Positions 12,673-19,956 of a DNA stretch of 20,000 nucleotides are shown here, piece after piece; the stretch's first letter is position 1; each line of letters begins with the position of its first letter. The stretch is from an uncultured virus (IMG/VR IMGVR_UViG_3300022602_000071). Taxonomy: Duplodnaviria > Heunggongvirae > Uroviricota > Caudoviricetes. The stretch is taken from IMG/VR virus record IMGVR_UViG_3300022602_000071; one strand, given 5' to 3'. The translations under genes and the position numbers were made by a program. The notes beneath the pieces are model-generated. The model made no database searches. It was not told where the DNA came from and saw nothing but the letters and a program-made list of their open reading frames with translations.

Positions 12673-12782
12673 AAAAATTATTAAGATGGTTACTGACTCC
12701 ATATCGTAGATATAAAGAGAAAAAAGCATTTCAAGCTCGACTAGCTGAATTGCGCAAGCGTGATCCATTTATTTACAAATGA
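12669..12782 (+). CDS. 37-aa basic peptide coupled to the carbamoyltransferase (not in the ORF track)
   Basis: MKKLLRWLLTPYRRYKEKKAFQARLAELRKRDPFIYK*; ATGA overlaps at both ends exactly fill the gap between primase and carbamoyltransferase. Confidence 0.8.
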   Translation: MKKLLRWLLTPYRRYKEKKAFQARLAELRKRDPFIYK

Positions 12783-13723
12783 TAGCCTGGGGAATAAACG
12801 CTCTTAATCACGGCTCCAGCCTGGCTGTTTTTAAAGGCGGCAAATTGCAATCATTGGCTAATTGTCAAGCTGATGAACTAAATTCATCAGACATAACTCG
12901 TGCACTACATTATGGAGCGCCCGATAGGATCTATTGGTACGAACGCCCTTGGATTAAAAAAGCTAGACAGCTATATGCAGGACAATATTCCACAGTCTTC
13001 GACTTATCAAATCTACCAAAAAAATATTTAAAAACTATAAAGGTATCTTATGCTCCAGTTACTTATACTGCTCATCATGCTAGCCATGCTGCCGCTGGCT
13101 ATTATACAAGTCCATTCAATCACTGTGCAATTGTTGTTCTTGATGCGATCGGAGAATTTGAGTGTGCTACCATCTGGCAAGGACTACACGGTGAAATGAA
13201 GAAAGTGTGGAGCAGAAGTTATCCACATAGCCTTGGAATTTTTTATAGCGCATTTACTAAATTAATTAATCTTACTCCTATAAAAGATGAATATTTGTTA
13301 CAACAAATGAGCGATCAAGGAGACCCTAATAGATTTTATTTTGAAGTTAAATCTTATATGGATAGCGTTCTTAACATGCCAAAAAATTTGCATAGAGGAG
13401 TGACTGATTGGCCGTTACCTATAGATAACCTGCAGGATCAATGCGATATTGCCGCAGCTGTTCAAACAGTATTCGAAGATCAAGTCGGCCTGATAATGGA
13501 TACAGCTAGAAAGTTAACCGGTGCTAATAGTTTAGTCTACATGGGCGGTTGTGCTATGAACAGCAAGTGTAATCTAAAAGAAATGCCTAAATGGAAGTAT
13601 GTTTGGTCGTTGCCTAATCCCGGAGACCCCAGCAGCAGCATAGGTGCTGTACTGTACCACACTAAACAGAGAGTACGGGATTATAAGTGGGATCCCGTCA
13701 AACACCTTGAAATTCGCACATAA
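12779..13723 (+). CDS. Carbamoyltransferase (CmcH/NodU family), N-terminal Kae1-like domain only
   Basis: 314 aa; WGINALNHGSS, YERP, HHASHAAAGYYTSPF, VLDAIGE, PHSLGIFYSAFT, DIAAAVQ, GGCAMN, PGD.SSIGA. Confidence 0.88.
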   Translation: MIAWGINALNHGSSLAVFKGGKLQSLANCQADELNSSDITRALHYGAPDRIYWYERPWIKKARQLYAGQYSTVFDLSNLPKKYLKTIKVSYAPVTYTAHHASHAAAGYYTSPFNHCAIVVLDAIGEFECATIWQGLHGEMKKVWSRSYPHSLGIFYSAFTKLINLTPIKDEYLLQQMSDQGDPNRFYFEVKSYMDSVLNMPKNLHRGVTDWPLPIDNLQDQCDIAAAVQTVFEDQVGLIMDTARKLTGANSLVYMGGCAMNSKCNLKEMPKWKYVWSLPNPGDPSSSIGAVLYHTKQRVRDYKWDPVKHLEIRT

Positions 13724-15196: not shown

Positions 15197-15204
15197 TATA
15201 AATA
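15197..15204 (+). promoter_or_regulatory. T4-late-type promoter box TATAAATA
   Basis: Exact TATAAATA in the intergenic gap upstream of ORF 15229. Confidence 0.6.
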
Positions 15205-15228
15205 CGCTTATTATAAAGGTAGCGACTC

Positions 15229-15678: not shown

Positions 15679-15702
15679 CAGCCTGACTAGTTAAATACTA
15701 GT

Positions 15703-16257: not shown

Positions 16258-16313
16258 GATATTCTCCTTAGGCTGTATTTATATACGCAGTTAATACACC
16301 CAATAATTTTTGT

Positions 16314-16550: not shown

Positions 16551-16883
16551 AATGTATTTACTCTTACTAGTTTGTAACTGAAATCAGTAGTAACGCGGAG
16601 TAAATAATAGTATACTATAATTATTATGCTTAACACTATTATACTTGCCAATTAATCTCTTTCGCTCCTGATCAAGGCCTACATGTGTGCAAGTACACAT
16701 GCGACCAAGGTCCTAAAACCGTAATCAACGTGGTCAGCAACAACAGCAACTATATTTGCCAACGACAAATCACAGTTAACCGTTGGCTGCATAATCGTTA
16801 AAAATCAGTCTATTTCAAGCGTAATCATACTGTAATCTATAAATACTTGTACACAGAAACTGACTCTGTGAATTGGAGGTTTT

Positions 16884-17042: not shown

Positions 17043-17053
17043 ATAAATACTCA

Positions 17054-18109: not shown

Positions 18110-18403
18110 ATGAACTATACAAAACTATTCTTTATACTAGCACTTGCAGCCCAAGTGGCAGCGTGTGGAGGTGGTGATCAACCACAGGCAAATCAACGAA
18201 TCACGGCATGTGACAGTGGTGTGGTTGCAGTAATGGCTACTATGGCAGCTCCTGACCTAATGGGCATGGGAGAACCAGACACTACTACATACACAACAAG
18301 TGGGCAGAACCATGTGTTGATCTACGAATTCGTATTGGCTCGAACCACATACGAATTTGAGTACAACGCCAACTACTGTAGCTTGACCGTGACAACTCAT
18401 TAA
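18110..18403 (+). CDS. Putative lipoprotein
   Basis: 97 aa; MNYTKLFFILALAAQVAA-CGGG has a hydrophobic signal and lipobox VAAC; TATACT at 18098-18103. Confidence 0.7.
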   Translation: MNYTKLFFILALAAQVAACGGGDQPQANQRITACDSGVVAVMATMAAPDLMGMGEPDTTTYTTSGQNHVLIYEFVLARTTYEFEYNANYCSLTVTTH

Positions 18404-18552: not shown

Positions 18553-18738
18553 ATGACCAAGACAGAATTAACGCTATGGCGACAGGCACAGTATCTAGCA
18601 TGGCGGGATTTGGCCTGCGATGAATCTAGATGGCCTGCGAATACTTATACGGCGGTCACTGTTAACTACTATACAAGACTGTTGAAAGAACACTGGCGGA
18701 TTCCAGCAGAAAAAGGTCAAACTGTAGGGAAAAAATAG
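18553..18738 (+). CDS. Small hypothetical protein (61 aa)
   Basis: In-frame ATG within track ORF 18493..18738, located 4 nt after TAAATA (18543-18548). Confidence 0.5.
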   Translation: MTKTELTLWRQAQYLAWRDLACDESRWPANTYTAVTVNYYTRLLKEHWRIPAEKGQTVGKK

Positions 18739-18889
18739 CCCGCGTAAAAAATTATAAAGAAGTACTTGAACTTTTTCGAGGTGGTTTTTACTTCGGTACC
18801 CATGCGCTGTTGCGCTATAGCAACAGTTTGCAAATATGCATGTCTCCCACTCCAGCCATTTCTTTTTTCATTAGACCGACCTCTCGACC

Positions 18890-18940
18890 AAAAAAAATCC
18901 TCTCACAACCGGGAGCGAATCGGATTTATGTGAGAGGATT
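18890..18940 (-). terminator. Terminator for the - strand transcript (12-bp stem plus T-tract)
   Basis: AATCCTCTCACA (18896-18907) and TGTGAGAGGATT (18929-18940) form a perfect inverted repeat; the A-run 18890-18897 is a U-tract on the - strand. Confidence 0.75.
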
Positions 18941-18992
18941 AGACTGTAGGAGCTGTCCCTCCTACTGGAGACTGGTTACCGGGAGCGAATCG
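18908..18992. repeat. 15-bp direct repeat ACCGGGAGCGAATCG, two copies
   Basis: Exact copies at 18908-18922 and 18978-18992, each enclosed by a different stem. Confidence 0.9.
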
Positions 18993-19018
18993 TTGGCCAG
19001 ACTGCTATGCAACAGCTC

Positions 19019-19900
19019 TTAGCGGCTGTTACGCATACAGGTCATGTCAGCTACAGCACGCCACTTGTCTGGGAAGCTGGCAGCTAAGTCCGCTATCTTA
19101 AGCACAGTACGCAGGCTCAGCTCGCGTAGTCTAGCAGTGTTATCAGTAACGAAGTTGACAACATCCGTCTTCTGCGCATCAGAGAGCTCATAGTGATCCA
19201 GCATGCCACACTCAGTTACTACCTGTCTAATGCGCAGGACCTTCTCACGCTCTGTGTCGATAGTAAGGTCCAAGTAGTGACAGCGTGACTCTAGTGCTTC
19301 CAAGTGATCACGCAACTTCTTGCTCTTCACGTGATCGAACTTGATATTGGTAATAAAGATAGCGCCGCCTTTGAACTCAAATGAGTCGGGCACGCCTTCT
19401 CTGCGCAACAATGAACTATCAGTGTTCCAGTGGATCATACGCTTGGCACTGGTGTCTAGTGCCGCTTTGAGAATGTTAAGACTCAAGTCATCCAGCAGGA
19501 TTGAATCACAGTCATCAAACACTAGAACATTCTTACGATCACTGTAGTGATAGAGCTTGCTGTATAGTCCAATGGCACTCATTGCGCCTTTGACCACTTC
19601 GTACTTCTTCAGCTTCTCGTCATTGGCCACTGTGGCGAACACATCATGCTTGCTGAGTACTTTCTCAACGCCAAAGCTCTTGCCAACACCTGGAGGGCCT
19701 GTTACGATCATAGCTTTGACTCGGCCGCCTTTCACAGCGCGGGTCATGTCATCTAAGATCTCAAAGCGATCGCGTAATCGATCCAGGATCTCGTCATCTG
19801 TCTCTGTAAGTATCTTGTTGACCTGTTCTACTTCGAGACTCTTTGTTGTGGGTTCTGATTGCAGTGCCATAAGCATTTTACTTGTAATTACTTTCGCCAT
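19019..19900 (-). CDS. Phage P-loop (AAA+-type) ATPase
   Basis: 293 aa; Walker A GPPGVGKS, Walker B VLVFDDCD, sensor IFITN, Arg finger ALESRC; SD AAGGAG. Confidence 0.88.
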   Translation of the reverse strand: MAKVITSKMLMALQSEPTTKSLEVEQVNKILTETDDEILDRLRDRFEILDDMTRAVKGGRVKAMIVTGPPGVGKSFGVEKVLSKHDVFATVANDEKLKKYEVVKGAMSAIGLYSKLYHYSDRKNVLVFDDCDSILLDDLSLNILKAALDTSAKRMIHWNTDSSLLRREGVPDSFEFKGGAIFITNIKFDHVKSKKLRDHLEALESRCHYLDLTIDTEREKVLRIRQVVTECGMLDHYELSDAQKTDVVNFVTDNTARLRELSLRTVLKIADLAASFPDKWRAVADMTCMRNSR

Positions 19901-19927
19901 TGTCGCTCCTTTGTATTTAAAGATTTA

Positions 19928-19956
19928 ATTATAACAGGGATTTGACTCCCTGTCAT
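19928..19956 (-). promoter_or_regulatory. Sigma70-type promoter with an inverted repeat over the spacer
   Basis: On the - strand: ATGACA, 17 bp, TG-T-TATAAT; ACAGGGA-N6-TCCCTGT at 19934-19953. Confidence 0.65.

Follow-up and report, generated by a model that had tools for sequence, protein, structure and literature searches.

Base-pairing small RNAs derived from bacterial 3′ untranslated regions (3′ UTRs) include CpxQ, DapZ, and SroC, while loop-driven antisense RNAs of plasmids and phages are represented by CopA/CopT, Sok/hok, RNAIII of pIP501, and the c4 RNA of phage P1 (Rfam family C4). In the case of P1 c4, a single transcript supplies both regulator and target, and the ribosome-binding site (RBS) is covered by two short blocks of complementarity. 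Lytic phages have few known regulatory RNAs, and we know of none for jumbo phages. YUNR motifs in antisense RNAs are presented as scaffolds for the first contact (PMC3834814). For phage T4, RegB is described as cutting GGAG/U in early initiation regions, and RegA as competing with ribosomes on ~30 mRNAs (PMC3014915). Finally, the PeSLs of T4-type phages are described as stem-loops without a conserved loop, placed just upstream of a sigma-70-like promoter, the 3′ end of the cassette carrying a Shine-Dalgarno and a start codon, and are proposed to serve as recombination substrates (PMC4122927).

We analyzed a 20-kb stretch of DNA (38.7% G+C; hereafter the window), a phage replication module encoding a RecA/UvsX-like protein, a ResIII/DEAD helicase, a Toprim primase, and a DnaB-like helicase. 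Its source is an uncultured freshwater jumbo phage with relatives of ~350 kb. Related IMG/VR contigs span 300-383 kb and are rated 83-100% complete, the cultured phages closest to it in protein similarity are two jumbo phages, Pseudomonas PA5oct and Agrobacterium Atu_ph07 (44-53% amino acids), and 22 sequencing runs labelled as freshwater metagenome (DNA) contain this stretch. The element under study is the 3′ UTR of an AAA-type ATPase gene (19019..19900, minus strand; 293 aa; phrog_1250, function unknown) with its ATG at 19900 and its stop codon at 19019-19021. This protein had no match to solved structures by sequence and nothing meaningful in NCBIfam, and its mRNA is apparently early and monocistronic. 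A conserved small ORF of 28 codons lies downstream (18717..18803, minus strand; tblastn matches in 14 related loci) and is oriented like the ATPase gene, so that the element sits between two same-direction genes. For comparison, we used the best 80 of 188 ATPase relatives in IMG/VR (71-87% amino-acid identity), which were chosen independently of the motif described below, and read two near-complete related genomes (G007 and G009) in full, with genes taken from a crude ORF caller.

The initial annotation had proposed a multi-hairpin element of ~130 nt directly 3′ of the ATPase gene, and three hairpins followed by a U8 tract indeed occupy 18890-19018 on the minus strand, the first and last sharing an invariant apical loop, AUUCGCUCC. 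The first (class A; 18969..19003) has an outer stem (18997-19003 / 18969-18975) of six pairs plus one U.U mismatch, enclosing an invariant 21-mer block, CCAACGAUUCGCUCCCGGUAA (18976-18996), with the apical loop at plus-strand positions 18982-18990. This stem had been reported as CTGG/CCAG and is longer than claimed (AGACTGG/CCAGACT, 18969-18975 / 18997-19003). Two of the three AGACT copies interpreted as a recurring linker are the arms of this same outer stem, and the linker does not recur in homologues, so that part of the description falls away. The middle hairpin, GUAGGAG-GGACAG-CUCCUAC (18946..18965, from sequence and fold), lacks the motif and corresponds to the annotated GTAGGAG/CTCCTAC stem. 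The last hairpin (class B; 18897..18939) is the terminator hairpin that had also been recognized: its predicted stem (18897-18907 / 18929-18939) comprises 11-12 bp, and it ends in the U8 tract (18890..18897; A8 on the plus strand). Its loop region reads UAAAUC-CGAUUCGCUCCCGG-U on the minus strand, in which an asymmetric linker, UAAAUC, is followed by an inner helix, CCG/CGG (18909-18911 / 18921-18923), closing the apical loop AUUCGCUCC (plus-strand GGAGCGAAT, 18912-18920).

With a GC-rich hairpin of 11-12 bp preceding U8 on the ATPase strand, class B has the make-up of an intrinsic terminator; our consensus scan, which takes only loops of 3-8 nt, did not list it, the loop region here measuring 21 nt. 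As the initial annotation had noticed, two different stems present the same 15-mer, ACCGGGAGCGAATCG, which occurs exactly twice in the window (18908-18922 and 18978-18992) for 0.14 copies expected, a count reached by 2 of 200 shuffled sequences; no third match with up to three mismatches was found in the window. By sequence, the loop also fits the pattern of a recognition loop of kissing-loop/U-turn antisense RNAs (~5-9 nt with 5′-YUNR), since AUUCGCUCC starts with UUCG (Y-U-N-R). Finally, the element lies 3′ of the stop codon and has its terminator in common with the ATPase mRNA, as do small RNAs derived from 3′ UTRs.

Comparison across homologous loci shows a single-copy, conserved, structured 3′-UTR element carrying two identical candidate anti-Shine-Dalgarno loops. 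Across the best 80 of 188 relatives, the motif core was found within 260 nt 3′ of the ATPase stop codon at all 80 loci and at least twice at 76 of them, with 66 distinct 3′ UTR sequences represented. In these same 80 loci, the 20.7 kb of 3′-UTR windows contain 152 copies of ATTCGCTCC, compared to one on the same strand and four on the opposite strand in the other 381 kb. A T6+ tract follows the last motif loop within 45 nt at 56 of the 80 loci, and many of the remaining loci have a separate third terminator hairpin further downstream. The place of the middle hairpin is taken in homologues by a hairpin of unrelated sequence, or by none.

Both motif hairpins combine a fixed loop with a variable stem. 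For class A, which adjoins the stop codon, 20 of 21 central positions are invariant among 27 distinct sequences (alignment A1), while compensatory changes are seen in all seven pairs of the outer stem, whose cells are paired in 97.9% of cases vs. 71% when shuffled and 23-38% when the partner is slid. Class B, which is usually the terminator and carries a conserved asymmetric linker, RUAANYC, yielded 45 distinct hairpins with 36 distinct 5′ arms, whose stems hold 430 Watson-Crick pairs out of 437 and include all four pair types at positions 1-10; these stems were scored with an ungapped stem finder, the MAFFT alignment (A2) being out of structural register. Over 117 unique hairpins, Watson-Crick pairing holds for 938 of 962 outer pairs, and the inner 3-bp helix that closes the 9-nt loop covaries as well (CCG/CGG 66, GUG/CAC 7, CGG/CCG 3, GCG/CGC 1). 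A class A covariance model recovered one full match each in the window (58.2 bits), G007, and G009, along with partial class B matches and the reverse strand of one late RBS. The initial proposal of conserved loops on divergent stems is thus borne out by comparison. In IMG/VR, the 15-mer is present at a minimum of 120 loci; among the matches listed, eight carry paired copies 44-102 bp apart, and six of these (spacing 61-80 bp) have the hairpin architecture of the window with different stems.

The minus strand was taken as the RNA because of the terminator and the gene order, which makes it the probable transcribed strand: the U tract lies 3′ of the last hairpin on the ATPase strand. G.U pairs in the outer stems also favor this strand, with 11 G.U cells vs. 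at most 5 unpaired for class A, 5 vs. 1 for class B, and 10 vs. 4 over the 117 hairpins. Folding energies are ambiguous on this point, slightly favoring the antisense strand, and were not counted as support. In the window, the minus strand folds at -45.9 kcal/mol (z -1.87) and the plus strand at -52.6 kcal/mol (z -3.72), and among 118 hairpin windows the antisense strand has a slight edge in stability (65 vs. 49, p 0.025) because the class A flanks can form three G.U pairs there. Two lake metatranscriptome runs yielded short contigs (151 and 167 nt) inside the ATPase ORF only (19253-19434), as well as a diverged piece at 19548-19687 and longer contigs that overlap partially, over 33-35 nt; none lies on the element, and these contigs show neither strand nor ends, so that they weigh neither way.

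We then considered the RBS of the ATPase gene itself, to which the loop core had been reported to be complementary. Its extended Shine-Dalgarno, GGAGCGA (19903..19909, minus strand), is the complement of the loop core UCGCUCC, as claimed, and is found as RBS in 1 of the 25 genes of the window, that of the ATPase alone. Judged from the window only, this match is weak: GGAGCGA occurs four times for 0.94 expected (3 of 200 shuffles reached four), and two of the four copies are the loops themselves. The match between loop and RBS becomes significant only through comparison with relatives. GGAGCG is the Shine-Dalgarno in 59 of the 61 distinct 5′ UTRs of ATPase genes (best 80 of 188 relatives), with A as the next base in 78%. 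Its distance to the ATG varies among homologues, and no position elsewhere in these 5′ UTRs exceeds 14% G. Upstream of it lies a sigma-70-like early promoter, ATGACA-17-TATAAT with TG (19928..19956, minus strand; 11 of 12 consensus matches), with a stem-loop between the two hexamers (19934-19953), and almost all ATPase homologues have a TGnTATAAT-like box ~30 nt 5′ of the ATG. In minimum-energy folds of the ATPase mRNA, the Shine-Dalgarno pairs with a motif loop ~1 kb away in 47 of 62 distinct full-length models; in the window, GGAGCGA is predicted to pair with the class A loop, and the GCCA beside this loop with UGGC from the start region. Such long-range minimum-energy pairs are weak evidence, being unreliable predictions.

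The ATPase site is a match of 6-8 nt, and ranks only 9th of 391 start regions in G007 and 13th of 437 in G009 by duplex energy. Counted genome-wide, the loop complement GGAGCGAA lies mostly in RBSs. G007 has nine copies for 5.1 expected, six of them sense-strand RBSs, one a loop, and two inside genes; G009 has 15 copies, of which 12 are located just before an ATG, two are loops, and one lies inside a gene without an ATG nearby. Eight of the 12 in G009 stand behind TATAAT early promoters, within 10.5 kb ending with the ATPase gene. In both near-complete relatives, a cluster of early promoter cassettes has GGAGCGAA as its predicted RBS. Duplication or recombination of cassettes could also preserve GGAGCGAA in them, in the way proposed for PeSLs (PMC4122927).

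Complementarity is strongest (11-15 nt) at late-gene RBSs elsewhere in the related genomes, and extends to the early cassette class as well. In each of the five near-complete genomes, one or two genes with a TAAATA box upstream hold an 11-15-nt complement of the loop, CCGGGAGCGAA(UCG), in their RBS region. The TAAATA box resembles the consensus of the T4 late promoter. The genes concerned encode the small membrane protein family phrog_18771 (G004, G009, G010), a CsgF-like family (PF10614; G004, G009), and DUF4337 (G007, and G008 by N-terminal sequence only), and a 9-nt complement precedes a holin-like gene of G007 with weak family matches (phrog_3427, E 2e-6; PF11351, below the cut-off). When all start regions were ranked by duplex energy against the class A loop, late genes came first, with top scores of -33.4 kcal/mol (z -7.1) in G007 and z -5.9 and -5.7 in G009. 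The IMG/VR matches listed for the exact 15-mer comprise 109 unique contexts: 61 are in hairpin loops, 24 are in the opposite orientation 0-8 nt before a start codon (17 with TAAATA within 35 nt), and 24 are neither, the latter looking mostly like chance occurrences in G+C-rich coding sequence. The 20-kb window itself yielded no long-complement target site, such sites being known from the genomes of relatives.

These comparisons show that the complementarity is conserved along with the structure, and the seed-like pattern of a 3′-UTR-derived small RNA is present, with invariant loops, variable stems, and complementary sites in five of five near-complete genomes. They also refine the original suggestion of a 3′ UTR-derived anti-Shine-Dalgarno RNA: the 3′ UTR position, the shared terminator, and the conserved complementarity to the ATPase RBS all stand, while the ATPase mRNA as sole or strongest match does not.

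Database searches point to an element distinct from those in current catalogs. No known Rfam family, C4 included, matched the window at the gathering threshold, and at E <=10 the region 18740-19060 produced only a chance lncRNA match (E 1.8). No tRNA or tmRNA was found in the window. Against GenBank phages, blastn with the region returned no match, and the class A hairpin only an 18-nt chance match in a Vibrio phage; the motif, searched at up to two mismatches in PA5oct and Atu_ph07, was absent save for one 2-mismatch match in Atu_ph07. Among the matches listed in a full-text literature search, the motif strings appeared in unrelated subjects only, none on phages. A tRNA T-loop, the 16S rRNA 3′ end (GAUCACCUCC), and a stretch of 16S helix 24 may each resemble the loop; these likenesses were judged post hoc and set aside. 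Candidate protein partners were searched by profile in five related genomes: CsrA was absent (control positive in three reference genomes), as was Hfq (with a positive control), and the RegA and RegB profiles were silent, as were their positive controls. On this comparative sequence evidence, the element is a candidate for a new family of RNA motifs in uncultured jumbo phages of freshwater.

We propose, with about an even chance of being right, that the element is an anti-Shine-Dalgarno 3′-UTR RNA which pairs with these RBSs, in cis and/or in trans, to time translation. Each 9-nt loop AUUCGCUCC, displayed on its short covarying inner helix, would act as an anti-Shine-Dalgarno and base-pair with an extended Shine-Dalgarno serving as an "address", GGAGCGAA. 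Two groups of mRNAs would carry this address: the ATPase mRNA itself and the neighboring early promoter cassettes, through 6-8 nt, and a handful of late mRNAs that encode small membrane or secreted proteins, through a longer form, CCGGGAGCGAAUC(G), of 11-15 nt. Pairing would occlude the RBS and perhaps trigger cleavage. For the weak early matches, that of its own mRNA included, the outcome may be self-limitation or 5′-3′ closure, such that early transcripts would damp their own class and selected late proteins would be held back until late mRNA outnumbers the early RNA. The transcribed strand, pairing in vivo, the direction of its effect, and action in cis or in trans are inferred parts of this model.

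A more ambitious version, which we put forward tentatively and regard as doubtful, is an RNA-only timing device. All transcripts from the early cluster would have a two-headed anti-Shine-Dalgarno RNA at their end, and this RNA would read the 8-15-nt address of a regulon made of early cassettes and a few late envelope/lysis genes (phrog_18771, CsgF-like, DUF4337, holin-like). The early RNA would thereby set a threshold of late mRNA above which these membrane proteins would be made.

Several other explanations would account for part of these observations. One is that a phage or host protein binds the AUUCGCUCC loop and its flanks, for mRNA stabilization, termination control, or localization, and that the complementarity to RBSs is incidental. 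The invariance of class A over 20 of 21 nt would fit such a binder well, as it extends to flanks (CCAA, YAA) that RBSs do not consistently match, and so would the conserved class B linker RUAANYC and the presence of two identical loops, which suit a dimeric protein. Nonetheless, we consider this unlikely, given that it leaves unexplained both the exact complement that serves as RBS of at least ten genes, in opposite orientation and at a fixed distance from the start codon, and the fixed GGAGCG of the ATPase 5′ UTR; moreover, profiles of Hfq, CsrA, RegA, and RegB were silent in the five genomes, RegA and RegB lacking a positive control. The complementarity could also serve in cis only, with the 3′ UTR folding back on its own 5′ UTR either to stabilize the mRNA or to damp ATPase translation constitutively, and with no targets in trans, which would resemble the fold-back inhibition of hok mRNA. 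Three observations would be expected from such an arrangement: Shine-Dalgarno/motif-loop pairs in 47 of the 62 mRNA models, the extra UGGC/GCCA pairing in the window, and GGAGCG in 59 of 61 5′ UTRs. Yet a match of 6-8 nt requires neither an invariant block of 15-21 nt nor two loops, the 11-15-nt sites of late genes, conserved by gene family across genomes, are left without explanation, and the long-range pairs themselves are unreliable; we judge a role restricted to cis to be quite improbable.

The same double-stranded sequence occurs in loop and RBS contexts, as would be the case for an element acting at the DNA level, either as a 15-bp protein site or as a PeSL-like recombination cassette functioning in either orientation. 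The layout upstream of the ATPase gene, with its stem-loop, sigma-70-like promoter, and conserved Shine-Dalgarno, resembles the PeSLs as described (PMC4122927). This explanation is very unlikely in our view, since the stems covary around a fixed loop, indicative of a single-stranded fold, while recombination would homogenize the stems too, and since orientation strictly tracks function, sense copies lying 0-8 nt before start codons and antisense copies inside hairpins. Even further from the evidence is the alternative raised in the initial annotation, in which the plus strand is functional and its GGGAG loops are a decoy for CsrA/RsmA-like proteins or, in a variant considered here, for 30S subunits. 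The better fold of the plus strand in the window (z -3.72 vs. -1.87), and its slightly better fold over the 118 hairpin windows, would agree with this idea, but there are only two such loops, neither of them of the A(N)GGA form, no U tract follows the hairpins on that strand, no promoter-like site was found at 18739-18890, outer-stem G.U counts favor the minus strand, no Rfam Csr/Rsm family matched, and no CsrA was found in the five related genomes. The proposed sponge is thus not upheld, and we give a plus-strand function a minimal probability. Equally remote is an ordinary terminator with mRNA-stabilizing hairpins and no sequence-specific role: a GC-rich stem followed by U8 is a canonical intrinsic terminator, but a loop of 9-21 nt would not be expected to stay unchanged while stems turn over across 66 distinct 3′ UTRs.

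If the anti-Shine-Dalgarno pairing is real, the virus would mark a regulon by extending its Shine-Dalgarno sequences and read this mark with the tail of an early mRNA, a compact hypothesis for both early shut-off and the timing of envelope/lysis proteins. The timing device, if true, would be an RNA-based functional counterpart of T4 RegA/RegB and possibly a lysis clock. The element would also add an RNA family to existing catalogs, and may offer a portable, orthogonal pair of RBS and repressor RNA.

Among known systems, the element recalls the 3′-UTR-derived small RNAs of bacteria, with which it shares the 3′ UTR position, a terminator common with the mRNA, a short seed more conserved than its surroundings, and predicted targets that are RBSs, many of them of envelope proteins. 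It differs from these in being phage-encoded, in presenting two identical seeds in apical loops rather than one single-stranded stretch, in having a seed inside the terminator loop, and in being complementary to the Shine-Dalgarno of its own mRNA. The recognition sequence in hairpin loops, the YUNR-type UUCG start, and the RBS as target are features of loop-driven antisense RNAs, but the element is not encoded opposite its targets and would instead address unlinked genes via a shared extended Shine-Dalgarno; no Rfam family, that of C4 among them, matched it in sequence or by model. CsrB/RsmZ-type sponges have many GGA loops and a terminator, whereas only two GGA loops occur here, on a strand without terminator. 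The early genes clustered around the ATPase gene, in G007 and G009 as well, each have their own stem-loop, sigma-70-like promoter, and conserved Shine-Dalgarno, a layout that resembles the one described for PeSLs. The 3′-UTR element departs from PeSLs in being a conserved loop on variable stems, antisense to the Shine-Dalgarno of the cassettes, and in the window no sigma-70-like promoter follows it, unlike the PeSL-like layout upstream of the ATPase gene. In its proposed logic, the system would come close to T4 RegA/RegB as they are described, i.e., a class-wide post-transcriptional grip on early mRNAs via their initiation regions (PMC3014915). RegA and RegB are proteins, whereas the proposed reader here would be an RNA, and its mark an 8-nt extended Shine-Dalgarno.

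The heptamer TAAATAC, which we take to resemble the T4 late promoter TATAAATA, is not enriched overall in the window (7 copies observed vs. 5.45 expected). Yet six of the seven copies are sense-oriented and precede an ORF start by 3-24 nt: those at 15199-15205, 15692-15698, and 17044-17050, and on the minus strand those at 16275-16281, 16554-16560, and 19913-19919. Three stand just 3-4 nt ahead of the ATG, without a Shine-Dalgarno sequence, an arrangement that suggests late mRNAs with a very short leader or none.

Related jumbo phages encode homologues of curli secretion components, including a CsgF-like protein (PF10614) on two contigs (L125:1516-3015 on G004 and L246:3036-3515 on G009). On G004 the next gene specifies a CsgG-like protein (PF03783, E 7e-47), and a late-promoter-like box precedes this gene pair. 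On a third contig, G007, a gene (292654-293556, minus) for a secreted, extremely Asn/Thr-rich repeat protein of at least 300 aa is preceded by a TAAATAC box; its ribosome-binding site reads GGAGCGAAgcc. Within the window, a gene for a carbamoyltransferase N-terminus-like protein (12779-13723, plus; PF02543, E 3e-25) is flanked by a primase and a DnaB-like helicase, odd company for a replication module. A 97-aa ORF with a lipoprotein-like signal sequence (…AAQVAACGG; 18110-18403, plus) is convergent with the ATPase unit and kept in three related loci.

About 90 nt beyond the ATPase terminator, on the same strand, lies a 28-codon ORF, MGTEVKTTSKKFKYFFIIFYAGYFFPTV (18717-18803, minus), with tblastn matches in 14 related loci. 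It lacks a Shine-Dalgarno sequence, and a 7-bp hairpin (CTGTTGC/GCAACAG, ~18806-18826) that recurs in relatives is found just upstream. A conserved GGGG..CAT(A/G)(T/C)AAA-like block, also upstream, may be its promoter. In the 3' UTR element of related loci, some of the middle hairpins between the two motif hairpins (L167, L152, L161, and others) contain GCCAAC-AA-GGCAAC. These look like the class-A hairpin, the motif hairpin near the ATPase stop, minus its GAUUCGCUCCC core, and are possibly a decayed third copy of it.

Every early gene near the ATPase has a stem-loop of its own, along with a separate TGnTATAAT promoter and a ribosome-binding site reading GGAGCGAA, with such cassettes at 19928-19956 (minus) in the window, 1.4-8.5 kb in G007, and 87.6-98.1 kb in G009. 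In the window cassette, the stem-loop (19934-19953) sits between the -35 and -10 hexamers. The early-gene units around the ATPase form a repeated cassette, like the PeSL elements of T4-type phages.
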